From the IMG/VR virus record IMGVR_UViG_3300008255_000224, positions 1 to 40,528 of that record: a DNA stretch of 40,528 nt, one strand, 5' to 3'. A program made the translations under genes and the position numbers. Positions 2,545-35,754 of this stretch are shown here, one piece after another. Under the pieces are notes generated by a model. It was not told the origin of the DNA. It saw nothing but the letters and a program-made list of their open reading frames with translations, and did not search any database. This DNA comes from a virus. Taxonomy: Duplodnaviria; Caudoviricetes. The number at the start of each line of letters is the position of its first letter. Position 1 is the first letter of the stretch.

Positions 2545-4176
2545 ATGGATTTTCCATTGGAAGCACAGCGGTATACAGCGAGACCATGGATCTATGCGAA
2601 CAACATCAAAAACGAGTTCGGTAATCCAATCGAGTTCCGGAGCCATCGGTTCCTAGAGGATCTGTACGATGACGACTATCCCCAGAAGGCCGTGTTGAAG
2701 GCCTCCCAGGTGGGACTGAGCACGATGATGAACCTCAAGCTCCTACATCGTGCTCGGTTCTGGGGAATCAATCAGATCTACACCCTGCCCACAGACGGCG
2801 ATGTGAGCGATTTTGTGCGTTCAAAGACCAATCGGCTGATCCGTGTTAATCCCTGCATCACGCAGGATCTGGACAAGCGATCAGTGGACAGCATCGAGCA
2901 GAAGCAGATCGGCAAGGCGTTTGTGTTCTTTCGTGGCACCTTCGGGAAGCAGAAGGCGATCATGTTGACCTCCGACTGGAACTACCATGACGAGCTGGAT
3001 ACCTCAGATCCTATCGTGGTGGAGACCTACGAGAGCCGGCTATCAGCGTCTCAGCTCCGTGGCCTGGAGTATTTCAGCACTCCATCGATCCCCAACTTTG
3101 GCATCGACATGAAGTGGCAACAGTCCGATCAGAAGTTCTGGCGGATCACCTGCCCATACTGCGGCAAGGTCTACCATCAGGAGTGGGAAGAGCGTGACGG
3201 CTACCCTCCGACCATCGACATCGAGCACAACTGCTACTTCTGCCCTCACTGCCGGAAGGTGGTGTCAGTCCAGCAGATCTCAGACAATGGCAGATGGGAA
3301 GCCAAGTACCCAGGGCGTGACATATCCGGCTACTGGATCCCTCAGATGATCTGTCCCTGGATCTCACCAAAGCGTCTCATTCAGACTTTTCGAGATAGTG
3401 AGGACATCAGCCAGTTCTACAACTTCAACCTGGGACTGCCGTACATCAGTGTGGATCAGCGTGTCCAGGAACAGCTCTTCATCAAGAACCTGGTCACAAA
3501 TGTCCGAGCCGATCAGGCCGGTGGGAATGTGGCAGGGATCGATACCGGCGGAGAGAAGGGACTGCATCTGACCGTGGGTAACGCCAAGGGGATCTTCTGG
3601 ATGCAGGTACTCAAGGATCAGCTCACTCCAGGAGAAGGACGAGGCCACTGCCAGTTCTGTGGGCGATCCAAAGCGTCTGGCCGGTGCGGATGTCGGTTTG
3701 AACAGCTGGCCGATGTGATGACCTTCTACGACATCAGGACAGCGGTGATCGATGGTATGCCATACACCGAGGAAGCCTACGCATTGGCCAAAGCATTCCC
3801 ATACAAGGTGTTCCTCAACTGGTTCAATGACGATCCCAAGCTGATTGAGATCGTCCGCTACCTGGACGAGGGTGGCCAGAAGGGCATGGAGTTCGAGGAA
3901 GAGGTGAAGGTGCTGTCAGCCAGGACTAGGATCATCGATCACGCAGTCAGTGAGCTCCGGCGTGGATCCATACGGTTCGACATGGACAGGGACTCGGTTC
4001 ATTTCCAGATGCTCCTGAAACACGCAGGCACCATGTATGCCAGGGACACACCGCTTTCCAACCTGCTTGGTACCAGGCGTGAGTGGGTCAACACTGGTGC
4101 GAATGATATGTTCCTCTCGTTCATCTATTGGCTAGTCGCTTATATGAAAGGATCCAAGAGTGAACCTAATCGATGA
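2545..4176 (+). CDS. terL: Terminase large subunit, lambda GpA-like
   Basis: KASQVGLST (Walker A variant), HDELD (Walker B), STP coupling motif, CPYC...CPHC, FYNFNLGLPY, nuclease AGIDTG. Confidence 0.92.
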   Translation: MDFPLEAQRYTARPWIYANNIKNEFGNPIEFRSHRFLEDLYDDDYPQKAVLKASQVGLSTMMNLKLLHRARFWGINQIYTLPTDGDVSDFVRSKTNRLIRVNPCITQDLDKRSVDSIEQKQIGKAFVFFRGTFGKQKAIMLTSDWNYHDELDTSDPIVVETYESRLSASQLRGLEYFSTPSIPNFGIDMKWQQSDQKFWRITCPYCGKVYHQEWEERDGYPPTIDIEHNCYFCPHCRKVVSVQQISDNGRWEAKYPGRDISGYWIPQMICPWISPKRLIQTFRDSEDISQFYNFNLGLPYISVDQRVQEQLFIKNLVTNVRADQAGGNVAGIDTGGEKGLHLTVGNAKGIFWMQVLKDQLTPGEGRGHCQFCGRSKASGRCGCRFEQLADVMTFYDIRTAVIDGMPYTEEAYALAKAFPYKVFLNWFNDDPKLIEIVRYLDEGGQKGMEFEEEVKVLSARTRIIDHAVSELRRGSIRFDMDRDSVHFQMLLKHAGTMYARDTPLSNLLGTRREWVNTGANDMFLSFIYWLVAYMKGSKSEPNR

Positions 4177-19300: not shown

Positions 19301-19347
19301 ACACTCTGAAAGCTAAAATCGCAAAATTAGAAAACAAGGCCGTATAA
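16306..19347 (+). CDS. Collagen-like tail fibre with CBM5/12-like module, beta-rich tip and chaperone-like C-terminus
   Basis: Two G-X-Y blocks flanking [17 protein letters not shown]...YW; C-terminal [18 protein letters not shown] coiled coil as in S74-type chaperone tails. Confidence 0.85.
16357..17721 (+). repeat. Gly-X-Y repeats (about 67 + 69 triplets) with 99-bp and 18-bp higher-order units
   Basis: GS[VA] triplets recur at 16492, 16591, 16690, 16789; GCGGCAGGTGCCCAGGGA is present x3 versus x2 in duplicated blocks near 17300 and 17516. Confidence 0.95.
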
Positions 19348-19367
19348 TTATCACAAGGAGCATAGCA

Positions 19368-20897
19368 ATGGCAGTCACCAACCTCAACCAATACTACACC
19401 GACAAGGGACAGAAGCTCCCTACCCTCCAGGATCGCAGCCTGCTGTACGAGCAGTACGGCCTCGGGACTGCACGATCATACGAGGGGACAGCCCAGCAGA
19501 ACACGGCACTCCTGGGTGCTCTGTACCAGGCTGACAGTGCACCGCCGGCACCGGCCGCTCAGCCGGAACCAGTGGCACCGGCACCGGTAGCCGCCGCTCT
19601 AGTAGACACGACCACCCTGGCCACGCCCACGCAGGCACCGGTGACCGCTCCAGCTACACCTGTCTCCAACATTCCGGAGAACGCTACCTTCTTCACCAGG
19701 TACGGCCAGGGTGCCCATCTGGTGAAGTTCAACAACGATCCGACCGTCTTTGTCCAGGATGCATCAGGCAAGATCCTGGCTCGGTATGGAACGCCGGCCG
19801 AGGCTGTAGCTGACTATGGCTCCAACTGGCAGTCCAGCATCCAACAGGGTATGCCGATCACCAACAATGTGCTCCGTCAGTTCGATCCTAGATCTGGCGT
19901 AGCGGCGTATGGCTTCGACATTGGTGGCAATCCCTACTATTTCGGCAATCCTGATACCGCCTATGAGGCCTACGGTACAAACGACTGGAACACCATCAAC
20001 AGCCGTGTCTCGAATACCATGGATCAATCAGATCCTACCGGCATGGAGATCGGAGCGGAGAACCTTCTTACCCAGCTGGACACTCAGAACGATGAGCTGG
20101 TGAATTACCTGACCACTGGATACGACACTGAGTATGTGAGCCTTGGCCTGGGTGAGATCAAGACCAATATCACGAACCTGGATAGCCAGATCGCAACCGT
20201 CACAGCACAGCGTGATGCGGCGATTGCTACCACAAAGGCCAATCCTGGCATGAGTGCGGCGGCGATCACCGGCGATGTTGGTGCCCTGGTGGATAAATAC
20301 AATGCCCAGCTCGGTGCCCTGGTCGGTCAGCGGAACAGTATGGCGGAATCCTACAACACTGGGATCTCCCAGCTCCAGACCAAGATGGGTCTCAATGTCC
20401 AGGGACAACAGCAGGGGATCACTGGCACCCAGACGCAGTACAACGCAGTCACCGGCCGGATGGATGCACAGAGCGAAGCGGCTACCACCGCTCTCCAGAT
20501 GCAACTTGATCAGGCCAACAATGATCGTGGCTTTGAGATCCAGGAGTTCAACGCCGAGACCAGCCGATATACCGCCACGAAGCCAAGGAGCACAACGACA
20601 TCCACACCAAAAGAAGAAAAACCAACCTATACTAGAACACTGTCGAATGGCGAGACCATTGAGATCTCCGCTACAGCATATGCCAAAGAAGTCGAGAAAG
20701 ATGCCAAGAACCAGGCCGAGATCGACATCCAGGCCGACATCGACTATGTGCTGCCGTTCTTCGAGAGCTGGTCAGATGGCAAGGCTGGCTACTCCTATGA
20801 CTACATCTTCCAGAAGCTGAAATCTACCTATGGTACATGGTACAGTGATGAAAAACTGAGAGAAGCCTTGTATGAGCGTGGTATAGAAGCAGAATAA
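19368..20897 (+). CDS. Probable internal virion/DNA ejection protein with DUF3597-like N-terminus
   Basis: RSLLYEQYGLG...YEGTAQQNTALLGAL; Pro/Ala/Thr linker; long Gln/Ala/Thr-rich helical region. Confidence 0.55.
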   Translation: MAVTNLNQYYTDKGQKLPTLQDRSLLYEQYGLGTARSYEGTAQQNTALLGALYQADSAPPAPAAQPEPVAPAPVAAALVDTTTLATPTQAPVTAPATPVSNIPENATFFTRYGQGAHLVKFNNDPTVFVQDASGKILARYGTPAEAVADYGSNWQSSIQQGMPITNNVLRQFDPRSGVAAYGFDIGGNPYYFGNPDTAYEAYGTNDWNTINSRVSNTMDQSDPTGMEIGAENLLTQLDTQNDELVNYLTTGYDTEYVSLGLGEIKTNITNLDSQIATVTAQRDAAIATTKANPGMSAAAITGDVGALVDKYNAQLGALVGQRNSMAESYNTGISQLQTKMGLNVQGQQQGITGTQTQYNAVTGRMDAQSEAATTALQMQLDQANNDRGFEIQEFNAETSRYTATKPRSTTTSTPKEEKPTYTRTLSNGETIEISATAYAKEVEKDAKNQAEIDIQADIDYVLPFFESWSDGKAGYSYDYIFQKLKSTYGTWYSDEKLREALYERGIEAE

Positions 20898-20909: not shown

Positions 20910-23900
20910 ATGCCGATACGAGCCTTTGTAAAACGATCAGAACAGGCCAACACGCCAACGCCGGCGGCCGCCGCTCCAGCTCCTGCACCTACCAGGAGAG
21001 CGTTTGGTTACAACCTCCGGCCAGCTCCTGCACCGGTGGATACCACGATCAGATCCGCACTCCCTGGCCAGCCATTGCAGACCACGACACCGATGCAGTC
21101 CATGATGTTCCAGCCTCTCGGTGCCACTGCTAGCACTCCTGGGCTGTCAGTGCCATTTACCAACAATGCCGGCAGGATCAACCTTGGCGGAGATCTCACT
21201 GTGAACGGAGCCAGGCCGTCCGGCCTTGGTGTCCTTGATAGCAGCGGTCTCGATGTCAAAGGTGCCTTGTCTCGTCTCACGCAGATGGAAATGATGCCAG
21301 CTCCCCAGGCTCAGGCTGGTCTCCCTGGTATGTCCGGATCCGGATCAGGTATGCAGATCTCCAGGACTGACAATCTCACGGTCGGTGAGACCGGCGGTAC
21401 TGGATCTAATGCCCTGTTCCCTGAACAGGCGGACGAGCAGTACCGAAAGTCGGCGACAGATCTCAGTGACTTGGACAAGTTCACACTGGGACTGGCTCGT
21501 GCATCTGATCCAACAATTATGAGCTTTCTATCATCAGATTCTGATGTCCAGTTTGACAATAACGACTTCTTCACCGGACTTGGTGCTGGAGTAGGGATAC
21601 TGATCAATGCCCCAATCCAAATGATCAAGGCCCCTGGATCCTACGGAACAGAGGGTATCAGGAAATCTATCGAACAGAATGATGCTCCGATTCCCCTAGC
21701 GATCCTGCGTGGACTTGGATATGGTGCGGCTGATATGGCGTATGACACCGGTGCTTTTGCTATAGGAGAAGCTAAATCCCTCATCGATGGAACACTTTGG
21801 AAACAATTTCAGACATCACCTATTGAAGCTCTCGCCAGGGTGGCCGTGGATGTCTACGCCGCAAGAGCCGCATACCTGGGTGTAAAAGCTACCGTGAAGC
21901 CATACCTCACCGAGCCAATGATGAAGGCCACCGGCTTTGGCAACTGGGAGCTGATCACGAGGGATGTAGTCTACAAGATCCAGAACGCCAAGCCTGGCGA
22001 GGTGGTAGGCTTCACGCCGGCCGAGGCTCAGGTATACAAACTCCTGGACAATAGGATCAAACGCAAGATCGCCAATGTGAATAATCCTACGCCCATGGAA
22101 GCCAGGACAGTCACCAGCTCCATGTTCAATGGTGTGAAGGACAATCCTATCGCCAAGGGTGTCGCTCGTGTGTTCGGTATTAAGGATCAAATCGTAAAGG
22201 GCACCGAGGTGATGAGTGCTCAGACCAGGGGAACATCGATCCCAGTGCCGGCCGTACCAGAAGCTCCGAGATCTCTCGGCACTGGTGCTGTAACAAATCC
22301 TGATGCTGCACCTGGAGTGCCCAGCGAGATTTTGAAAAATGTGATCAATGATACGAAGGCAACTCCTGCACAGAAATTGCAGGAACTGATAGACAGAGAA
22401 AAGGTCTATGATCTATCTCCTGATCAGATCGTCCAGGTCAATCAATACAAATCGCTCCTGCAAGATCTGATCAAAAAGGAAGAGGAAATCAAACGCATAT
22501 CGAACGCAAAGCCCTCCACAAAAGCTGATCAATCACTGATCGACTCTGTTGTTGGGAAGCTGGACAAAGATGAGGCACTGGCAAAGACCTTCACAGTGGA
22601 GAAGTTCATCGATCAGACGACCAAAACATACAAAATGGCTGAGGATCCAGATGATATGCCTGGACTCGGCAAGCGTGTCATTGAAGATGTCTCCATGAAG
22701 GTGAGTGATATTCTCAAAGATATGGAATGGGAGCAGGCGTTCAAGAGATCTGTGGAAGGGAATACGGCAATCGAGAACAGCCTGGCAAAAGCTGAGGAAT
22801 ACAGCCGAGAGTTCGCAAAATTGAATCCGACTATCTATTTTGGTGGTGCGAGATCCTTTACGATCCCTGTCCTACCTGTCCAGACACAGCCAGATAGCAA
22901 AAATCAGGCACCTACAAGCCCCCAGGAGGCCGTTTCGGCTCCAAGTGGTACATCCGGTCATCCGGAGGTTCAATCTGCCCAGCCTGCCCCTACCATTAAG
23001 GAAGAAACAACCTTCTATCGTGGTGGTGGACACGGATCAATGCCGAAAGGAATGACGGCAGCCGACATCATAAATTACGAGAGAGACGAACTAGGCAACG
23101 CAGACATAACAGTAGAGCCTGGAATCGAAATTGAGTGGTTGAAAGCAGACAGCCTCATATGGCTCACAGAGAGCAAGGATGCTGCGGCAGAATACGGAGA
23201 TGTAGAGCCGGTCAAGATCTCGAACTATAAGATTGTTGCCAGAGACGGACAGGGTGGTGTATTGGTATGGCCTGTCAAAACTCCAGCCACGGGAACGAAC
23301 CAGAGAACAGCAGACCAGATCGCCGCCGATCAGAAACAGAAGGATGCCGTAGAGAAACTGGAACAGGAGAATGGTCAGATCCTATCGAAGGCCAGGCTGT
23401 ACGATACGGCGGCCAGTCGTGTAAGGCAGGGACGATCTACCCAGGCGGAGTTCAATGATCTCCAGGCCAAGGGTATGCTTTCCACCGAAGAGGAATACCA
23501 GCAAGCCCAGGAGATCAGGAAGCAGATCCAAGCGATCAAGGACACTCCAGTGGGATCACTAGTGCAGTCTGGTGAAAAATCACCGGTGCCTAGCGAAAAA
23601 TCACCGGCGAAGCCCTACGATCCGGCCAAGGAGATCCTAGCGGCTACGCAGGAACCAACTACCTCACCAACGACCAAACCAACTACCTCAGATCCTGAAA
23701 AGACCATGACTATTGGTGAGCTCCCTTTCCTGGATCCAGTGGAATACGCCGATGTGGCGGACATCCCAGTGGAGTTCAACGCAGAGACACCATCCGCTCA
23801 GATCGTTCTCGCAAAGTATGAGGATGAGAATGGTATCGTGGTTTCCCAGGAGGTTGTGAAGATCTGGCTCAATCCGATGCTGGATGATAAAGAAGCCAAG

Positions 23901-26900
23901 ATCTCCATGATCCATGAGATCCAACACGCTCGTGATGTAAGAGCTGGGATAATCCTGGAGCCGGAGTTCACGCCGGAGCAGAAAGACTGGCTACTGACAC
24001 CGGAAGGCCGGACGGCAGTAAATATGGAAAAAGCAAAGATGCCAGCTGGCACTCCTATAGAGGATGTCGCCATGAAGGTTCTCCATGATCGCTACGAAGC
24101 GACACCGCAGGAAGTCAGGGCGAGACAGGCCGTAGAGGATGCAAAAGCAAAAGATGAGGTACTATACAAAAGCCACAAGGTCGGAGATCTCCACTCCATC
24201 GGAGGGATCCCTAGTGAGCTGGTCAGGCTCGAGAGCTACGATGGCGTGGACTACGAGCTGTGGGACTCGGCCGGTCTCGATTCAACTGTGGCTACTATCC
24301 GTGTGTACGACACTGGAGCTGGCGAGTTCGTCACGATCCAGAAGTACAAAGATTTTGACAAAGCAGAGGAGGTCTACAACACCGAGACCAAGATCCTCAA
24401 GAAGATGGATGCTCCGGCCAAAAAGCCAGAATGGGGCAATCCGGAGGACATAAAGAAAGCCCAGGTGTCGGCGAAGGCCGGCGAGATCCTGGATGCGAAG
24501 AAGGCAAAGGAAAACGCCGCAAGTGCTCAAGACATGGCCACCAGGACTTCACTACCTGGCTTTGGTGCCGAGATCCGTACCGGCCAGCAATCGATCTTCG
24601 ATGTGAAGCCGGATCTGGAAGTGGTCGCCACGGCCGTAGAAAAAGACGGTAAAAGTCTGACGACAGAAGAACAGTCTGACTATCTCAGGTTCACCTTGCA
24701 GGACATGGTAAACAAAGAGATCACCGCCATGATCCCCGAACTGGAAAACGCCACAGTGGGAGAACGGATCATCGCCGGAGAACAGGATGGATATGTGAAG
24801 AACGGAACCTGGATCGGTGTTAAAGCGGTATTCCCTAGCTGGTACTATCAGCTTCCCTACACGCCGGCCAGAGCGGACATCATCAATATCATGCAGAACG
24901 AGGATTCGGATTCAATGATCAGAGATAAATTAAAGGAGATTGCCCATGACCGCCTTCTCAACGGCTCAGAAGAAAAGACAGGCTTTGGAAAGATCCCAGC
25001 AGACGAAAACTACAAAGCAGTATTTGAAGAGTTTTCCAAAACGAACGCACCGGACACCGCTCAGCGAACAGCAGATCAGGATAGTGAACAACATAATCAG
25101 AAGCCGGAGCTAGTCAACGCTCCCCCAGTAAAAACTCCGAGCTTCACTGAAAAGGTGAAAGCAGGAGACAGAAGTGCCGTGATCCCGAAGGTCTCTGAGG
25201 TAACTGTAGATGGTGTTACTCTGGAAAAGTTCGAGAACAGCACAGTTAAGATCATGGATGAAACTCTAATGACAACGAGTGCTGGCATCAGAGTGGCAGG
25301 GCGTTTCGTAGATCTCGGTTTAGGTGTCGGATCCAGGATAGGATTTGTACATAAATCCAATACTGGTGCATGGATGGTAGCTGATTATGAGACTGGGATA
25401 GCCTATGGAGGCAATAAGACACGCACTGAGGCATTAGAGACAGCCAGGAAATTGATCATCAACGGATGGCAGAACTTCCCTATCATCATCCAGGGTAGCA
25501 GGAAAGTGAACGAACTACCTGCCAGCATGATGATTGAAAAGCCACAAGGGAGTATAATACAGCCAAAGGCAGAGACTATTAAACCGGAGGTGCTAGATGG
25601 CCAATCAGCCGATGCAGGTGCTGGGAGTAGCGATAACGCCGGAGAAGTACCCGATGCTCAGCGACTGGGATCCGCAGACACTGGAAAAGCAGATACTGTC
25701 AACGGTGAACCGACTGTACGAGGGGAACCTCAAGGCAGTGCCGTCAGCATTATCGATGCTGGAGATGGATCTGGCGGCCGAAAGAGCGGTACAGCTGTCA
25801 TACATCCCACCAGACGAACCGTAAAGAAAACAGCGACCTCTCGCCTGGCACTCAACCAGCAGGTCGAAGAGATCATCCATAGCAAAGGCAACGAAGAACG
25901 CTTCGATCCAGCCGCATACGATGAGGCAGAGAAACGGATTCTCTCTCAGTATAGCGGCTACGGTGGTATCCGTGAGCGTGAGGATGGCCAGGTGGACGGT
26001 GCCCTGGATGAGTTCTTCACGCCTTCCAAGCTGGTACGGTTCACCTACAAAAAGCTGATCGACATCATGGGTGCTGATGCCCTGGCCAAGGTGGAGTATG
26101 TGGTGGAGCCTGCCATCGGCACCGGTAACTTTGTCGCTTTCAGCCCACTGGCCGACACCAAGTTCCATGGCTACGAGATCAACACCTACTCGGCAGTGGT
26201 ATCAAAAGTGCTCAATCCTGGCATGGTCATGGAGACCAAGGAGAAGCAGAAAAAGACGGATTATTATTCCTACCATCCAATCTACGAGACGATCCCTCAG
26301 GGATTCCAGGAACAATTCATACAGGACAATACCGGCGGACATCTGCCGGAGCCCTATGCGGATCTGGTCGTGGGCAATCCTCCCTATGGCAAATACATCG
26401 GGGAGGCAAAAGGAATGGGCGAGGGTACCGAGTTTGGCACCTTCATCGAATACTTCATTGGCCGTGGCCTGGCGATCCTCAAGGATGGCGGACACCTGGC
26501 CTATGTCGTGGACAGCCGGTTCCTGCGTGGAGCAAGTAGCAAAGGCAAGGAAGCGATTGCTCGGCTCGGTGAGTTTGTCGGTTCCTATCGGTTCCCCAAT
26601 GGAGCCTTTGGCGAGACCGGCACCGATGTCGGAACAGATCTGGTGATCTTCAAACGGATCCCCACTGAGGACAGCCTGGTGATCAGTGGCCGTGTCGCTC
26701 GGATGTCCAATATCTCTGACGAAGTGATGATGCAGAAAACGCCAGAGAATATCTTTGGTGAGCCTGGTGTGCGTTCTGGTCGCTTCGGAGAGGAACCATT
26801 CGTTAAAGGCTCCATGGCGGACATCCCCACGGTGGACAACGAGGACTTTGTTGAGGTCAGATCTCATCCGTCCAATGTGACCAGCAAGGCCAAGATTATC

Positions 26901-29900
26901 ATTCAGAAGCCCATGGAACCAGCACCGATGCTGGACGATGATTCTTTTAAGAAGATCGAGACCAAGCTCAAGCTCAACCACAAAGTCAAATACAAGATGA
27001 TGGATATTGGCAACTCCATCGATGAGGATCCCACTGTGATGTCAGCATACAGAGAGATCCAGTATGACGGCACCCTGCCGCAGTCATTCATAAAAGGCCT
27101 GGCACCAGAAGAACAGGTAAAGAGCTTCAGCTTCCACCAGGGAAAATGGAAGCTGGACGATTTCTACCTGGAGAACCAGAACCTCTACACGCTGCTTGAG
27201 GATCTGGAGACTGATCACGATTTCATATCAGATGAGCAGTACGAGAAGCAGGCCAAGTACATCGAGGATCATCTGCCCAGGTGGATCGAGGCAAAGAACA
27301 TCAATGTCCATCCTACCTCTGAGCTGTGGAAGAACATCCAGACGGCCAATGGCGTGTCTGTTCGTGATGAGTTCCTGTCGAGACTGAGATCCTATCCGGC
27401 TGATATGTTCGAGGGAATAGGGATCGGCACTACCATCAGCTATGTCAGCGGAGAGAACCTGACCCAGGGGAAGATGACCGACGAAGAGCGGCACTTCATC
27501 CGCAACAATGCCTCCAGGATCGCCGTGAAGCTGTTTCGGTACTATCTGTCCCAGATCGATACCGATCCAGCCACCAAGAAGATCATCGAGGACGATTTCA
27601 ACAAACAGAAGAACGCCTATGTCTTTGTCTCCCATAAAGATATGCCGATGGAGACAAAGGTGAATAAGGATTTCGCCAAGAACTTCGAGCTCAATTCCGC
27701 ACAGCATGAGGCAATCGGCTTCCTACTGGCCAGGGGAAAAGGGATCGCTGCCCTGGATGTCGGTGTAGGAAAGACGCTCACCGCCGTGATCGCTACCCAG
27801 GAGCTGTTCAATCGTGGCTGGGCGAAACGAGCCGCACTGATCGCACCCAATCCAACCGTGGGTGCCCAGTGGATCAATACGATCAAACGGATCTTCCCAG
27901 AGGCTACGATCTACGATTTCAGGGATTCAAAGAATATCGCCAGCTTCGCCGGTCGGAAGCTGGATGAGCGGTCATTCACGGTAATGACCCAGAAAGGCAT
28001 GGACAAACTCTCGCTGACTGACGATTCATACTTTGAGCTGATCGACGAGCTGACCGAGGCCATGGGAGGTGAAGAGCTCACGCCCAGGGAACGAGACCAA
28101 TTCATCGAGAAGGTCAAGGAGCTGATCGGCCAGGCCAAGATGGGCACCAGTCCTGTCACCCTGGAAGAGCTCGGCATTGATCACCTGGTCATGGACGAGG
28201 CTCACAACTACAACCATGTGATCGAGGGTGTGCCAAAGAAGCTGGACAAAAAGACCGGTAAACCGATCCGCAATCCCTACACTGAGCTGCAAATGAACCG
28301 CAGCAAGCGTGGGCTCAAGATGTTCATCATGGCCAAGCACATCCTGAAACACAACAACAACCGTAATGTGTTCCTGATGACGGCTACTCCGTTTGCCAAC
28401 AATCCGCTCGAGCAATACACCCTGTTCTCCATGGTCGCTGCCCAGGAGATGAAGGATCGTGGTGTCTACAATGTGCGTGAGTTCACGGACACCTTCTTCG
28501 AGATGGAGATGCTCAGAGTGGTCAAGCCGTCCGGCAATATCGACTTCGCATCCGTGGTCACGAAGTTCAAAAACTTCGATGTGTACCGCCAGATGGTGGG
28601 ATCCTCCATGCTCAAGATCGACGGAGAGGATGCCGGCGTGATCCGGCCGGAGAAGCACAACAATGAAGTGTACCTCAATCCGAGTGAGCTACAGCTCAAC
28701 CAGGGGCTCCAGCTGTCCGCTCGGTACAATGAGCTGACGAAAGAATTGAAGAAGCTGAATAGGTACGATGCGGAAGCAGCCGCCAGAGCCAAGAAGCTGA
28801 ATGGTGAGAGACTATCCTGTTCTCAGGCCATGATCGCCAATTCGTTCTCGCAGTATGCCGGTACCGCCTACACAGGAGACAAACCAACGCCAAAGGAGTT
28901 TGGAGACAATACCCCAGTGGTCAGGGCTACCGCTCTGGCGATCAAGGAACGCCACAAACAGAATCCCCAGGCCAGGGTGATCATCTACATTGGCAACCTG
29001 CAAAATAAATCGCTAGGCCTGAACTTCCACCATGCGACCAGGGACTACCTGATCCAGGAGTTCGGCTACAAAGCAGAGGAGATCGGACTGATCAATGGAT
29101 CCGTGTCGCAGGCCAAGAGAGTGCAGATGCAGGACGCCTTCAACAAAGGCAAGGTCAAGATCATGATCGGCACCTACGCTATGGCCGAGGGTGTGGATCT
29201 CCAGAAACGCACCACTGACATCTTCGTCCTCACGCCTATGTGGAACTACACCAACTACAAACAGCTCGCAGGACGAGCCTGGAGGCAGGGAAACGAGAAT
29301 AAGCACCTCATGTACAACCTGATGCTCACCAAGAACACCGGAGCCGTCTTTGTGGCTCAGAAGAACGCACAGAAGGAACGGCGTGAGAAAGAACTGAATA
29401 AAGCGGTCAAGCGTGGTGAACAGGTCATGGAGGTTGAGGGAGATGAGGTATCGTTTGATGAGGTACTGGCTTCGCTGATGACCGATCCAGTGCAGAGGGT
29501 GGAGATCGAACGCAAGATGGAAGAGGAATCGATCAAGATCGATCTGGCTGGCCTGTCCGGCCGGCTGGCTACCCTAGAGGATCTCTGGCAGGGTATCTCG
29601 GTGAAGAACCTGGAATACCTGATCAGGGAGGATGAGGCTCAGATCGAGAGCAACCAACGCCGGATCGCTGAGGCAAAGCAGTTTATGAAGGACTGGCCGG
29701 ATGATGCCAAAAAGCAGGAACAGTACACCAAGCAGATAGCGGCCAACCATAAGAATATCGCCAGCAAACGAGTGTCGATCACGAATATCAAAAGCCGGAT
29801 CGAGACCCTGGCCAGGCAGAAGGAGCAGGAGGGTGTCACCCAGGAGATGATCGATGCCCTCAAGGCTAAGATCGAAGAGAAGCGGAAGGCGAAAGATAAC

Positions 29901-32900
29901 ATCAGTGCTAAGTTCGCAGAGAAAGAAAAGCAGGCCATCGAAGATCGCAAGAACATGAAGTATGAGGAGAACGACTACAAAGCCATCACCCAGGAATACC
30001 TGGAGCGATCCGCAGGCCTGTTCCCCAGAGTGTCCGTGTTCCCGAAGATAGCGGCCGGCACCTCTGCTTCCTTTGGCGGCAGCCGTATGGCCTCATACGA
30101 GCCCAGGGAAAAACAGCTGGAGAATAAAAAGTTCCTCATGCGTGACAAGGTGGTAGGCCTGATCGACAAGTATGCACAGAGCATCGGTGAAGGCTTCCTG
30201 CCCTATAGAGCGGCCGGTATCTACAATCAGAGAACCAAGAACATCAGGGTACAGTCAGTCAATAACCTGAGTGTCGCCGCTCACGAGATCACGCATTTCC
30301 TGGATCACGCCTACGACATCAGCAAGCCCATGCTGGCCACAATCGGAGAGAATGCCAAGGGAAACCCCATCTATGCCCCTGAGACCGCTCCTTTCCGCAA
30401 GGAAATGACCAGCCTGTACGAAACCTACTACCCAGGCGGAAGCAAAAAACACTCCTTAAAGAAGAGAATGGTAGAGGGATTCGCCACTTTGCTACAGAAA
30501 TATGTAGAAACTCCCTCAAACATAGAGCTTTTGTACCCAACACTGGTGAAGGAGTTTTTGCAGGAGGGTGGGAAATACTACAAGCCGATCATGGGCGAAA
30601 TCCTCAAGGATCTGAATGACATCGTTGCGGAGTATCAGGCACTGGACGAGATGGCCGAGCTGGCCGCAGTCATGGTGTCGAACGAGAAAGAGGATGTGGT
30701 AGACAAAGAGAGCTTCCTGTCACTACATGAGAAACTCCGGACAGAGCTGGCTGATGGCCTGTTCCCCCTGGAGGTTGTAGATCAGGATCTCAACATCTTC
30801 AATACGAAGAAATCCAGCTATCTCGCTATGACGCAGGCCAGGAACTACAAAGCCATCGTCGCCAACAATCTGTTCAGCGACCGTGGGTACTACGCCTGGC
30901 GGAACGGTGAGTTCGTCAAGGTGCACAAGTTCAACTGGAAAACCCTGATCGACAACTTGAGAGAAGACAAGACACTGGACACCTTCGGCTATTACCTTGT
31001 GGCAAGGAGACAGCATTTCGACTACCTGGAGCTGGACGAGCTGGCACAGAAGATCATCGACATCCAGGCGGCGTATGACAACATGGCGACCAGCCTGGTG
31101 AAGAATGACGGTGTGGCTGAGGCCGATGTGGCCAAGGAGATTCGGAAGCTCAAGAACGCAGACGGTCTATCCCTGGATGAGGAGCTGGAGCAGGCGATCA
31201 ATGACCGAGCCGAGCTGGCACAAGTCCTGGAGCAGGATGGCTTCGTTCGTGAGAAAATGACCAATGTGTACGAGCACAACAAAGCTCAGTACGCCCAAGA
31301 CGAGAAGATGTACGACACCCTGGTGGCTGAGGATCTGGACTTTCTCGCCGCTCCGGAGATCCAGCTGGTGAAGAAGAAGAAGAGAGACGAGCTCAAGAAA
31401 AAACAGGGCTATGCTACCTACAAGCGTGAGGTGGAGGATCAGATCGTTGGTGAGGCCAATGGATCCTCGGCAATCAAGGTGGGCAAGACCAAGGTATCGT
31501 CCATGATGAGACGCACTGGATCCGAGAAGAGCATCTATAACCCGATCTATGGGGCGATCCTCAATCACTCCGAGATCATCAAGAAGGGGCTCCAGCAGGC
31601 GGTCTACAACCGGATCGGGGACATCGCCATGACCGGCGGACTGCCGCTCCTGTTCGAGAACGGCACCCTGGAAGTACACAGGGATGAGAAGTCCGGCCGG
31701 CTCTCCTATCCTCAGGAGAGGGATCCTCATATCATTATGGCCAGGATCAAGGAAAAGCGTGTGCCTATCCTGGTAGACGCTCAGATCAAGTTCATCATCG
31801 ACAATGCCCTGACCTACAAGCATATGCACATATTCGAGCAGCTCCTGGTAACGGCCGCCAAGATGTTCACCCTGGGCACCACTGGCTTCTACTGGATCTT
31901 TCCAGTGACCAATGTTCCCCAGGATCAGATCACTGCGGCAGTCAATTCGAGCCACAAGTTCATACCTCTGATCTCTCCGCTCAAGACACTATGGGACATG
32001 GTGTGGAAAAAGGATCCGGTAACACAGAAGTATTGGACGGAGTACATAGAGCTGGCCGGCATGAGGCAGACCATGGTGGGATCCGTGGCTATGTCGCCGG
32101 TCAGGCTGTTCTCTGCGATCAATCAGGAGAAGAACGCAATCGAGAAGGTCATCGATCTGGTATCGAAAGGCCTGGATCTCATGGCTATGCCCTCATCCGC
32201 CAGCGAGATCATCACCAGGATCACGGAGTATATCAATTCCAGGAAGGCCGGCGACACCCAGGCCGCAGCACTGGAAAAGGCCGCTCGTGTATCTGGCTCG
32301 TTCTCTCACATCGGCCTCTTGTCTAACCGGATGTTCAATAAGAAGAGCCAACGGCTGTCTGGTGAGGCATGGTGGAAGATGAACGCATTTTCCAATACAG
32401 GCTTCCAGATCCTCGACGGAACACTCCGAGCCCTGGAGGGAGCCGATGGCGGATCCGGCAAGCCACCTGGAAACATTCTGGGCTGGCAGTCGTCCGGCTT
32501 CGGGAAGAACCGACGATTCAAGCTCACCCCTGGCGGCCGGCGTGTCTACTTCGCTGTCCTGGCGACGATGGCGGTCATGATCGCTTCGATAGCCTATCTC
32601 AAGCAGTATGCCAGTGAGGAACAGAAACAACAGTGGCTGGATCTCTACCCAGAGGATCTGACCAAGTTCGTCTACTTCCCCAATTTCGGAGGTAGTGGGC
32701 TCACCAGGATCCGTGTCAGTGAGACCTTCAGTTCCCTGGCGGCCGTGGTCAATATGCTGATCGGTGAGCAGATCCTCGGAGCTGACTACACGACCAATGA
32801 CTACATCACCGCCGGTACCTCCTGGCTGCCGCAACAGTTCAATCCGCTCCTGCCTATGAAGTGGTTCCTCAGTATCTGGCCTACCACTGTCATGAATGTC

Positions 32901-33521
32901 CTGACACCTATGCTGGGAGTAAAGACCTATCCGGAAGTGCGTGCTCTGGAAAGCATTGGACAGTCCAGGCTCCCACCTAGTGACCGTATGAACGAGGACA
33001 CATCCTGGATGGCGAAGCAGATCAGCAAAATCCCTCTCATGGATGGAAAGAACCTGGGCGACACGCTGAATATGTCGCCGCTCAAGATCGATGCCCTGAT
33101 CACCGGCACCCTGGGACGAGCCTCAGGATACGCGACCGGCAAGCCCTCCATGTGGAAGGCCAGCAATCCGTTTGAACGAGAATACTATTTCACCATGGGG
33201 CGGCGTGTCGGTGTGATGTATGATGTTGTCAGTGCAGTGGATCAGCAGTACAACCGGTACCAGCATGGAAAGATCACGCTGTCATCTGACCAGGTGAGAG
33301 ATCTGTACCGCAAAAAGCAGATCGGTGATGCGTTCTCGGAAAGTATGTCCGATTTCAGGAAGCTGGATATCGAGCAGACACCTGAGAAAAAGGTAGTGAA
33401 ACAGAGAGAGGACATCATCAAACTGATCGATATGATGGAATCGGACAAAGTTCTGCCAGGCTTCAGCGATAAGAGGACGACCTACTGGAAGAACCGCCGG
33501 AAGAATTTGCAGGAGCTATAA
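20910..33521 (+). CDS. 4203-aa polyvalent virion/ejection protein with DarB-like MTase-helicase core
   Basis: FYRG...WLT...AAEYG (ART-like); HEIQH; EPAIGTG and NPPY (N6-adenine MTase); DVGVGKT, DEAH, TATP, GRAWRQGN (SF2/SNF2); HEITH...EGFA; SPLKIDALITGTLG (LPD38-like). Confidence 0.9.
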   Translation: MPIRAFVKRSEQANTPTPAAAAPAPAPTRRAFGYNLRPAPAPVDTTIRSALPGQPLQTTTPMQSMMFQPLGATASTPGLSVPFTNNAGRINLGGDLTVNGARPSGLGVLDSSGLDVKGALSRLTQMEMMPAPQAQAGLPGMSGSGSGMQISRTDNLTVGETGGTGSNALFPEQADEQYRKSATDLSDLDKFTLGLARASDPTIMSFLSSDSDVQFDNNDFFTGLGAGVGILINAPIQMIKAPGSYGTEGIRKSIEQNDAPIPLAILRGLGYGAADMAYDTGAFAIGEAKSLIDGTLWKQFQTSPIEALARVAVDVYAARAAYLGVKATVKPYLTEPMMKATGFGNWELITRDVVYKIQNAKPGEVVGFTPAEAQVYKLLDNRIKRKIANVNNPTPMEARTVTSSMFNGVKDNPIAKGVARVFGIKDQIVKGTEVMSAQTRGTSIPVPAVPEAPRSLGTGAVTNPDAAPGVPSEILKNVINDTKATPAQKLQELIDREKVYDLSPDQIVQVNQYKSLLQDLIKKEEEIKRISNAKPSTKADQSLIDSVVGKLDKDEALAKTFTVEKFIDQTTKTYKMAEDPDDMPGLGKRVIEDVSMKVSDILKDMEWEQAFKRSVEGNTAIENSLAKAEEYSREFAKLNPTIYFGGARSFTIPVLPVQTQPDSKNQAPTSPQEAVSAPSGTSGHPEVQSAQPAPTIKEETTFYRGGGHGSMPKGMTAADIINYERDELGNADITVEPGIEIEWLKADSLIWLTESKDAAAEYGDVEPVKISNYKIVARDGQGGVLVWPVKTPATGTNQRTADQIAADQKQKDAVEKLEQENGQILSKARLYDTAASRVRQGRSTQAEFNDLQAKGMLSTEEEYQQAQEIRKQIQAIKDTPVGSLVQSGEKSPVPSEKSPAKPYDPAKEILAATQEPTTSPTTKPTTSDPEKTMTIGELPFLDPVEYADVADIPVEFNAETPSAQIVLAKYEDENGIVVSQEVVKIWLNPMLDDKEAKISMIHEIQHARDVRAGIILEPEFTPEQKDWLLTPEGRTAVNMEKAKMPAGTPIEDVAMKVLHDRYEATPQEVRARQAVEDAKAKDEVLYKSHKVGDLHSIGGIPSELVRLESYDGVDYELWDSAGLDSTVATIRVYDTGAGEFVTIQKYKDFDKAEEVYNTETKILKKMDAPAKKPEWGNPEDIKKAQVSAKAGEILDAKKAKENAASAQDMATRTSLPGFGAEIRTGQQSIFDVKPDLEVVATAVEKDGKSLTTEEQSDYLRFTLQDMVNKEITAMIPELENATVGERIIAGEQDGYVKNGTWIGVKAVFPSWYYQLPYTPARADIINIMQNEDSDSMIRDKLKEIAHDRLLNGSEEKTGFGKIPADENYKAVFEEFSKTNAPDTAQRTADQDSEQHNQKPELVNAPPVKTPSFTEKVKAGDRSAVIPKVSEVTVDGVTLEKFENSTVKIMDETLMTTSAGIRVAGRFVDLGLGVGSRIGFVHKSNTGAWMVADYETGIAYGGNKTRTEALETARKLIINGWQNFPIIIQGSRKVNELPASMMIEKPQGSIIQPKAETIKPEVLDGQSADAGAGSSDNAGEVPDAQRLGSADTGKADTVNGEPTVRGEPQGSAVSIIDAGDGSGGRKSGTAVIHPTRRTVKKTATSRLALNQQVEEIIHSKGNEERFDPAAYDEAEKRILSQYSGYGGIREREDGQVDGALDEFFTPSKLVRFTYKKLIDIMGADALAKVEYVVEPAIGTGNFVAFSPLADTKFHGYEINTYSAVVSKVLNPGMVMETKEKQKKTDYYSYHPIYETIPQGFQEQFIQDNTGGHLPEPYADLVVGNPPYGKYIGEAKGMGEGTEFGTFIEYFIGRGLAILKDGGHLAYVVDSRFLRGASSKGKEAIARLGEFVGSYRFPNGAFGETGTDVGTDLVIFKRIPTEDSLVISGRVARMSNISDEVMMQKTPENIFGEPGVRSGRFGEEPFVKGSMADIPTVDNEDFVEVRSHPSNVTSKAKIIIQKPMEPAPMLDDDSFKKIETKLKLNHKVKYKMMDIGNSIDEDPTVMSAYREIQYDGTLPQSFIKGLAPEEQVKSFSFHQGKWKLDDFYLENQNLYTLLEDLETDHDFISDEQYEKQAKYIEDHLPRWIEAKNINVHPTSELWKNIQTANGVSVRDEFLSRLRSYPADMFEGIGIGTTISYVSGENLTQGKMTDEERHFIRNNASRIAVKLFRYYLSQIDTDPATKKIIEDDFNKQKNAYVFVSHKDMPMETKVNKDFAKNFELNSAQHEAIGFLLARGKGIAALDVGVGKTLTAVIATQELFNRGWAKRAALIAPNPTVGAQWINTIKRIFPEATIYDFRDSKNIASFAGRKLDERSFTVMTQKGMDKLSLTDDSYFELIDELTEAMGGEELTPRERDQFIEKVKELIGQAKMGTSPVTLEELGIDHLVMDEAHNYNHVIEGVPKKLDKKTGKPIRNPYTELQMNRSKRGLKMFIMAKHILKHNNNRNVFLMTATPFANNPLEQYTLFSMVAAQEMKDRGVYNVREFTDTFFEMEMLRVVKPSGNIDFASVVTKFKNFDVYRQMVGSSMLKIDGEDAGVIRPEKHNNEVYLNPSELQLNQGLQLSARYNELTKELKKLNRYDAEAAARAKKLNGERLSCSQAMIANSFSQYAGTAYTGDKPTPKEFGDNTPVVRATALAIKERHKQNPQARVIIYIGNLQNKSLGLNFHHATRDYLIQEFGYKAEEIGLINGSVSQAKRVQMQDAFNKGKVKIMIGTYAMAEGVDLQKRTTDIFVLTPMWNYTNYKQLAGRAWRQGNENKHLMYNLMLTKNTGAVFVAQKNAQKERREKELNKAVKRGEQVMEVEGDEVSFDEVLASLMTDPVQRVEIERKMEEESIKIDLAGLSGRLATLEDLWQGISVKNLEYLIREDEAQIESNQRRIAEAKQFMKDWPDDAKKQEQYTKQIAANHKNIASKRVSITNIKSRIETLARQKEQEGVTQEMIDALKAKIEEKRKAKDNISAKFAEKEKQAIEDRKNMKYEENDYKAITQEYLERSAGLFPRVSVFPKIAAGTSASFGGSRMASYEPREKQLENKKFLMRDKVVGLIDKYAQSIGEGFLPYRAAGIYNQRTKNIRVQSVNNLSVAAHEITHFLDHAYDISKPMLATIGENAKGNPIYAPETAPFRKEMTSLYETYYPGGSKKHSLKKRMVEGFATLLQKYVETPSNIELLYPTLVKEFLQEGGKYYKPIMGEILKDLNDIVAEYQALDEMAELAAVMVSNEKEDVVDKESFLSLHEKLRTELADGLFPLEVVDQDLNIFNTKKSSYLAMTQARNYKAIVANNLFSDRGYYAWRNGEFVKVHKFNWKTLIDNLREDKTLDTFGYYLVARRQHFDYLELDELAQKIIDIQAAYDNMATSLVKNDGVAEADVAKEIRKLKNADGLSLDEELEQAINDRAELAQVLEQDGFVREKMTNVYEHNKAQYAQDEKMYDTLVAEDLDFLAAPEIQLVKKKKRDELKKKQGYATYKREVEDQIVGEANGSSAIKVGKTKVSSMMRRTGSEKSIYNPIYGAILNHSEIIKKGLQQAVYNRIGDIAMTGGLPLLFENGTLEVHRDEKSGRLSYPQERDPHIIMARIKEKRVPILVDAQIKFIIDNALTYKHMHIFEQLLVTAAKMFTLGTTGFYWIFPVTNVPQDQITAAVNSSHKFIPLISPLKTLWDMVWKKDPVTQKYWTEYIELAGMRQTMVGSVAMSPVRLFSAINQEKNAIEKVIDLVSKGLDLMAMPSSASEIITRITEYINSRKAGDTQAAALEKAARVSGSFSHIGLLSNRMFNKKSQRLSGEAWWKMNAFSNTGFQILDGTLRALEGADGGSGKPPGNILGWQSSGFGKNRRFKLTPGGRRVYFAVLATMAVMIASIAYLKQYASEEQKQQWLDLYPEDLTKFVYFPNFGGSGLTRIRVSETFSSLAAVVNMLIGEQILGADYTTNDYITAGTSWLPQQFNPLLPMKWFLSIWPTTVMNVLTPMLGVKTYPEVRALESIGQSRLPPSDRMNEDTSWMAKQISKIPLMDGKNLGDTLNMSPLKIDALITGTLGRASGYATGKPSMWKASNPFEREYYFTMGRRVGVMYDVVSAVDQQYNRYQHGKITLSSDQVRDLYRKKQIGDAFSESMSDFRKLDIEQTPEKKVVKQREDIIKLIDMMESDKVLPGFSDKRTTYWKNRRKNLQEL
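25597..25824 (+). CDS. 75-aa protein nested in the +1 frame of the giant gene
   Basis: GGAGGTG 4 nt before the ATG; TATAAT at 25553-25558; helical protein-like sequence while the host frame is a disordered linker. Confidence 0.65.
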   Translation: MANQPMQVLGVAITPEKYPMLSDWDPQTLEKQILSTVNRLYEGNLKAVPSALSMLEMDLAAERAVQLSYIPPDEP

Positions 33522-35574: not shown

Positions 35575-35603
35575 TTGACGTAGGATCGGCGGCGTGGTAC
35601 AAT
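35575..35603 (+). promoter_or_regulatory. Strong sigma70-type promoter with extended -10
   Basis: TTGACG-N17-TACAAT with TGG immediately before the -10. Confidence 0.8.
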
Positions 35604-35609
35604 CTTCGT

Positions 35610-35754
35610 GTAATCTCTATGAGGCAGAGGAATGTTGAAAAATTGGCACCAAATCCGTCTTTTCGTTCATCAAATACAGTGCTGGTCTGCTCGGTATGCC
35701 AATACCTTCAACGCCAGCCCCTCACAAGAGGCACTACTTCGGTAGTGTCTTTTG
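35610..35754 (+). ncRNA. Candidate ~145-nt small RNA or attenuator leader
   Basis: Lies between promoter and terminator; rod of TGAGG/CCTCA, TGTTGAA/TTCAACG, ATTGGCA/TGCCAAT. Confidence 0.5.
35726..35753 (+). terminator. Intrinsic terminator-like hairpin with UUCG loop
   Basis: AAGAGGCACTAC-TTCG-GTAGTGTCTTTT followed by GTTGT. Confidence 0.7.

Follow-up and report, generated by a model that had tools for sequence, protein, structure and literature searches.

A conserved small gene nested in the +1 frame of phage DarB-like polyvalent protein genes, with a possible role in superinfection exclusion

Is a 75-codon reading frame inside a 12.6-kb phage gene a gene in its own right, and what might its product do? 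The question is raised by a virus record of 40,528 bases, analysed over its whole length and referred to here as the window. It encodes a terminase, an SU10-type capsid and adaptor, a collagen-like tail fibre and then, downstream of the capsid and tail genes, a giant + strand gene (20910..33521) for a polyvalent DarB-like protein of 4203 aa. The giant protein matches the DarB-like family phrog_10089 in PHROGs (E 3e-36) and, among Pfam-type domains, Eco57I, ResIII and Helicase_C, with LPD38 below the cut-off. An LPD36-like helical domain (25830..26009, from about aa 1641, with GYGG at aa 1683) is followed by an adenine-N6 methyltransferase core (26010..26699) with TP, EPxxGxG and NPPY motifs (FTP at aa 1703, EPAIGTG at aa 1733, NPPY at aa 1823), the bounds of both being approximate, and further downstream by an SNF2-type SF2 helicase/translocase (27684..29291) with GVGKT and DEAH. 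The protein carries the LPD36 GXGU, TP and NPP(Y/F) motifs and the C-terminal SWI2/SNF2-type SF2 ATPase of the DarB-type LPD36-methyltransferase-SNF2 dyad of polyvalent proteins, which is defined, together with the LPD36 domain, by Iyer et al. 2017 (PMC5512222). DarB is described there as riding in the P1 head and shielding, in cis, the DNA of the phage from type I restriction. Judging from the place of its gene after the structural genes, the giant protein of the window would be packaged in the virion. An ART-like domain that had been assigned to it in the initial annotation is absent from its Pfam and PHROGs matches, and HExxH at aa 1002 and 3125 is the sole basis of the zincin proposed alongside.

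Within the giant gene, a complete ORF (25597..25824) lies on the same strand in the +1 frame while the host frame stays open, which is the arrangement of an embedded gene. It encodes an acidic 75-aa protein (pI 4.3) with a predicted beta-hairpin plus helices. The ATG at 25597 is preceded by a Shine-Dalgarno (SD) sequence, GGAGGTG (25586..25592), AGGAG-type sites being found at most genes of this phage, and by TATAAT (25553..25558), the predicted -10 box of an internal promoter, which is read as S-I-I in the giant frame. All of these elements had been picked out in the initial annotation and are present in the sequence. The + strand of the window has just one other TATAAT (19343-19348), located upstream of a 509-aa gene at 19368. 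A -35-like TTGAAA (25534..25539) is only 13 nt from the -10 box and probably not a canonical -35; in agreement with the lack of a well-spaced -35 noted initially, no canonical -35/-10 pair was detected on the + strand between 24500 and 27000. Elsewhere in the window, a well-spaced TTGACG-17-TACAAT (35575-35603) precedes a small ORF at 35619.

The reported preference for G/C-ending codons holds for 53 of the 75 codons. The codon log-odds of the nested frame is +0.20 per codon vs -0.48 +/- 0.17 in other +1-frame windows of the giant gene, and none of 397 such windows reaches its score. Over the nested span (aa 1563-1639), the giant frame is rich in G, A, D and S, as had been described (52% vs 28% overall), to a degree unmatched by any equal-length, non-overlapping window of the giant protein, and large hydrophobic residues make up 5% vs 24% overall. 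The earlier statement that the ORF ends just before the methyltransferase domain can be refined: its end is 5 nt ahead of the LPD36 domain, which itself precedes the methyltransferase core.

The idea that the ORF is a real gene was checked by a search for homologues. A phmmer search of 1.84 billion proteins with the window protein gave four matches, two of which are independently called small proteins of 78 aa (46%, E 8e-6) and 67 aa (42%, E 6e-5). The other two, P0044 and P0045, are long repeat proteins and were discarded as spurious. Loci were fetched by methyltransferase and helicase patterns without use of the small ORF (80, 79 and 69 loci), a procedure that inflates the link between the family and the module. 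A first profile, made from the window ORF and the two small called proteins and thus built without any locus, was scanned against all six-frame ORFs of 233 loci and matched 27 of them at E<1e-3, among these the ORF of the window itself. The iterated profile gave 70 matches, 69 of them outside the window (232 other loci). Taking the methyltransferase as reference, all but one of these 69 (68/69) are in the +1 frame, and 65 are enclosed by a giant ORF under translation table 11, or 67 if TGA is read as sense in L023 and L094; near-duplicate loci such as L020/L021, L025/L027 and L038/L039 are part of the set. In L170, the member stands as a gene of its own behind the giant gene; the L181 match is doubtful. 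Reading TGA as sense is required to open the giant frames of L023 and L094 (3134 and 3224 aa); TAG terminates the nested genes of both loci, which are probably phages of TGA-recoding hosts.

The usual site of the family is just before the LPD36-methyltransferase, and this place at the LPD36 start is common to prophages of at least five host phyla. Named hosts of the loci include Candidatus Staskawiczbacteria, Treponema, Chryseobacterium, Bergeyella, Acutalibacteraceae and Gastranaerophilaceae. Diverged members were seen by eye in L048, L065 and L180 and left out of the counts. The 'putative methylase' of the cultured Leptospira phage LE1, a temperate phage whose host is the saprophyte L. biflexa (PMC6078989), encloses an unannotated member (L001 3024-3233; HHalign probability 88, E 3e-6), and an ORF of similar kind, likewise unannotated, is seen within the 'SNF2-related protein' of a Leptospira plasmid (by eye; tblastn E 0.4). 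No family member was found in P1 darB (L004). A word-indexed protein search with the single window ORF returned nothing, tblastn of this ORF against cultured phages gave only weak Mycobacterium matches (E>=0.02), and scans of viral contigs with the single ORF, a single methyltransferase region, a 3-row alignment or P0047 yielded nothing that was confirmed. In genome samples besides the centre genomes, the family was seen in 1 of 400 Patescibacteria-group genomes (L238, apparently frameshifted) and in none of 400 Bacteroidota-group and 400 Bacillota-group genomes.

The comparison of substitutions in both frames, proposed in the initial annotation, was run on a codon alignment of 60 DNA rows from the 62-row family alignment. 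For 24 pairs at 75-99% nucleotide identity, amino-acid identity is 0.80 in the nested vs 0.61 in the giant frame, pN/pS is 0.23 vs 1.55, and the nested frame is better kept in every pair. At 60-75% nucleotide identity, it is better kept in 70/70 pairs; the compared pairs are not independent, and alignment on the nested protein favours the nested frame at low identity. The cleanest control is the pair of loci L282 and L015. Outside the ORF, position 3 of the giant frame takes 86/126 and 70/133 differences; inside it, 13 of 16 differences are at giant position 1, i.e., nested position 3, with 3 nested vs 14 giant residue changes. In strain contigs of this phage from other runs, 12 sites of the nested ORF vary, 8 of them at nested codon position 3, with 3 nested vs 11 giant residue changes; two of these contigs have a depth under 5. 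The substitution patterns indicate that purifying selection acts at the protein level on the nested frame, which bears out the earlier view of the giant frame as the passenger over this span. The nested ORF is almost certainly a real gene.

Two further observations concern the strain contigs. All 12 listed strain differences across 24000-27600 sit within the nested ORF (25687-25804), and the five differences of a 2652-nt contig from run X1 all fall within 27 nt, which may reflect a recombined patch.

Expression signals of the relatives were scanned in 125-nt windows anchored on an invariant proline, with windows of the same giant genes as controls. A strict sigma-70 pattern, TTGA(C/A)N-16/18-(T/G)AN(A/T)A(T/A), occurs in 16/60 upstream windows vs 61/3047 controls, SD plus ATG in 16/60 vs 119/3047, and the consensus -7 box of the Bacteroidota type in 22/60 vs 472/3047; these patterns were picked after viewing the sequences, which come from related loci. 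The signal type tracks the host group, with TAnnTT(T/A)G in Bacteroidota (Flavobacteriales) and GGAGG in Treponema. Many loci around L165 (a clade with the Staskawiczbacteria prophage), as well as the nearest relative L006, carry TTGACA-17-TAnAAT with the ATG 8 nt behind, a spacing that suggests a leaderless message. The signals of the window itself are a -10 box and an SD sequence with a poor -35. Since the relatives keep their own expression signals, the separate expression claimed for the nested gene is likely, with an internal host-type promoter as the likely source of its message.

Two conserved motifs, FP and LExDL, characterize the family. No variation is seen at P19 and L59 and almost none at L55, E56 and D58; in 62 rows, the LExDL residues are kept in 60 (L), 61 (E), 60 (D) and 62 (L) cases, and in the window the motif is encoded at 25759..25773. 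The median pI is 4.8, with 49 of 62 members below 6. AlphaFold2 models the window protein as a hairpin plus helices (pLDDT 84) and a member of the spirochaete clade as three helices with no strand (pLDDT 89). Measured against a ribbon-helix-helix (RHH) fold, a dimer with an N-terminal DNA-reading strand and two helices, the first model has a hairpin and the second is strandless; Z to any compared structure is at most 4.5. The window protein has no family in Pfam, PHROGs, NCBIfam or PADLOC (0 PADLOC families), no match below E 0.34 in a PDB sequence search, no Foldseek match at E<=0.001 and no usable match in the Atlas (nothing at 0.9); the best Z in the VIA structure comparison is 4.2 and 4.5. 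These blank searches do not show a new fold. Co-folding residues 1-68 of the nested product with 300 aa of the LPD36-methyltransferase gave no verdict (score 0.00).

How closely the gene is tied to the methyltransferase-helicase module was assessed at loci with at least 500 nt upstream. Of the 120 loci whose methyltransferase is close (score >=150), 68 have a family member, L170 and L181 included, and 52 have no match; at more distant methyltransferases the counts are 0/33 (score 100-150), 1/2 (60-100) and 0/20 (below 60). The pairwise identities of nested protein and methyltransferase correlate (Spearman 0.64, 58 loci), as physical linkage alone predicts. The partner methyltransferases are 29-58% identical to that of the window, and LExDL is nearly invariant.

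A DNA-pattern search for the C-terminal motif returned six viral loci, five already in the set and one new. The latter (L282/G1506) is a 29.3-kb phage record with direct terminal repeats and no methyltransferase match. It is 93-96% identical to L015 on both flanks and lacks about 3.8 kb (L015 5034-8857; L282 junction 3058-3060). The loss is in frame and extends from just inside LPD36 through the helicase, leaving the nested gene and a TTGACA/TAAAAT site intact. The methyltransferase-helicase block thus appears to behave as a removable cassette in L282, a single undated case that may be recent or misassembled. In addition, a 242-nt contig of depth 2 from run X3 tracks the nested gene and departs from the window 10 nt past its stop (25834), possibly a module swap at an L282-like boundary or a chimera.

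The 301 spirochaete-phylum genomes searched include 11 with members of the family, 13 copies in all: five nested before a methyltransferase, six free-standing, one at a contig end and one, next to a T4SS coupling gene, that is fused behind a NikA/RHH-like domain. Stops interrupt the would-be giant frame in 6 of 7 non-nested short copies. The free-standing copies have their own TATAAT-like or SD sites and no giant gene nearby. Four of the six are located among ordinary genes, with no defence gene in the annotated neighbours (39 of 102 neighbouring ORFs scanned). The other two, in related and hence not independent elements, have a type I restriction-modification (R-M) locus on one side and, on the other, the tyrosine integrase of an element that bears a terminase; type I R-M next to an integrase is common. 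These elements (L265 9252-17932, L266 8954-14891) are small, integrated and satellite-like, with terminase and tyrosine integrase, L266 also with DnaB/primase, and in both the free small gene and the type I R-M locus come next. In a quick tree (76 columns, many open forks, weak support), the free copies fall among the nested spirochaete copies. The initial annotation had the gene genetically locked to an enzymatic domain; its survival without the methyltransferase-helicase block in L282 and the existence of free-standing copies speak against this. An immunity function, also proposed there, may be exerted in trans.

Tentatively, the nested product is read as an exclusion factor predicted to neutralise the DarB-like methyltransferase-helicase that a related phage injects on superinfection. 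The giant gene would be a late virion gene, and the nested gene would be read early or in the lysogen by the host housekeeping sigma factor. Its small, acidic, helical product would act in trans, in the cytoplasm, on a protein partner, with the invariant LExDL helix as the putative binding surface. The incoming module would be the target, and with its function lost the competitor DNA would be exposed to host restriction. The exclusion reading is put first since it accounts for the fixed place of the gene, its separate promoter, its retention after module loss and its capture by chromosomes and small elements. Unrelated small genes also occupy the same spot in other giant genes, and it is conceivable, if doubtful, that DarB-like giants carry a cognate antidote in their own linker, under a host-type promoter, that disarms the DNA-protecting enzyme of superinfecting kin. 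If so, module-less phages, satellites and host chromosomes would adopt the gene for defence, and a widespread, unannotated effector-antidote layer would exist, with several unrelated small folds in the same slot. Another possible, though not probable, role, only slightly less likely than exclusion, is that of an independent early host-directed factor (anti-defence or takeover), which would bind a conserved host protein via LExDL and use the module boundary as tolerant coding space. This would agree with the gene being kept without the methyltransferase-helicase in L282, with free copies among ordinary chromosomal genes, with the fusion to a NikA/RHH-like N-terminus beside the T4SS coupling gene and with a nearly invariant LExDL next to such divergent partner methyltransferases. 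The LPD36-start position, however, is kept across at least five host phyla, which, like the unrelated small genes at the same spot, hints at a functional tie.

Such a tie, seen in the adjacency to and co-divergence with the methyltransferase, could also reflect a cis regulator or chaperone, in line with the initial annotation, that keeps the newly made methyltransferase-helicase of its own phage inactive or soluble until packaging or shuts it off after injection. A chaperone or self-inhibitor of the phage's own enzyme is weakened because L282 keeps the gene in the absence of the block and the free copies stand away from any giant gene; 52 of 120 close methyltransferase loci are without a family match, and a host-type promoter would fit early more than late timing, so that this role is unlikely. 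Very unlikely is a small RHH DNA-binding regulator, towards which the nearest named Atlas clusters (RHH or antitoxin, score 0.81), some RHH chains at Z 3.2-3.6 and RHH-like neighbours or fusions in L170 and L249 are weak leads; the low pI of most members, the acidic or hydrophobic nature of the conserved residues and the strandless three-helix model speak against it. The nested stop, often within about 20 nt of the LPD36 start, would suit an alternative N-terminus or leader from which frameshifting or re-initiation into the methyltransferase-helicase gives a short intracellular form. However, a giant-frame ATG near the stop and a slippery heptamer are each found at 2 of 68 loci, neither of them in this window, several nested stops lie 170-1290 nt upstream, and free copies exist, which makes a leader very improbable. 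The possibility that the frame is open by chance within a low-complexity linker is negligible, being refuted by frame-specific selection together with the homologues and codon use.

A second family is found in the same place. TnpV-like (PF14198) ORFs, unannotated in the records, are nested in the +1 frame before the methyltransferase in seven cultured phages: Klebsiella phage LASTA, Mwe-JY07, Atu_ph08, VvAW1, PEp14, Itty13 and POI1126 (L002 3561-3884, L253 632-1027, L254 230-535, L255 653-979, L256 722-1036, L257 713-1033 and L258 671-985). The LASTA ORF matches TnpV weakly (E 0.003, below the cut-off). These genes resemble the window family in place, frame, size, helical character and lack of annotation, but differ in their conserved residues and show no profile-profile similarity to it: PF14198 matched 0 of 62 members at E<=0.1, and kinship was not detected by HHalign (probability 0.2%, with a shallow set of seven sequences), so that a very remote kinship is conceivable.

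Other giant genes hold further frames of interest. Pseudomonas phage 8P (L262 527-796) has a third, different +1 ORF of 90 aa before the methyltransferase, with no Pfam match. Orf33 of Sinorhizobium phage PBC5 (L003 3-3365) runs into TnpV-like sequence and stops, with the methyltransferase in another frame; the nested gene is joined to the upstream part here by a frameshift, either natural or due to sequencing. A protein-like 87-aa +1 ORF further upstream in the giant gene of Vibrio phage VvAW1 (L255 74-334) is possibly a second nested gene, and L106 has a helical-looking 399-aa +1 ORF before the methyltransferase that is far longer than the other nested genes.

Gene callers miss the gene at all its nested sites, as in the records of phage LE1 and the Leptospira plasmid, which list only the large gene. 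The 'low-complexity linker' before many DarB-like methyltransferases can be understood as the shadow of a second gene, and the preceding xII motif as a -10 box. A protein family is added that has no match in Pfam, PHROGs, NCBIfam, PADLOC or the PDB and is found in two TGA-recoded loci as well as in prophages of several phyla. The family gives a point of entry to the question of how antirestriction enzymes delivered by virions are countered.

In the open-access literature consulted, subscription journals being outside its scope, no description of nested genes in DarB-like genes was found. The giant gene of the window bears the same dyad and motifs as the DarB-type proteins of PMC5512222; in the main text of that paper the words 'overlap' and 'linker' have 0 occurrences, and the parts examined mention no nested gene. 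The known embedded +1 gene for comparison is Rz1 within Rz of phage lambda (PMC6139136). Both cases consist of a whole +1-frame gene in a phage gene on the same strand, and a disorder-prone composition is linked to the overlap. In contrast, Rz and Rz1 are co-acting lysis proteins encoded in a short gene, and the nested protein described here is without spanin features. Unlike Rz1, it is encoded by 75 codons in a 12.6-kb gene for a virion enzyme, has its own promoter-like signals, occupies the selected frame and also exists as a free-standing gene.
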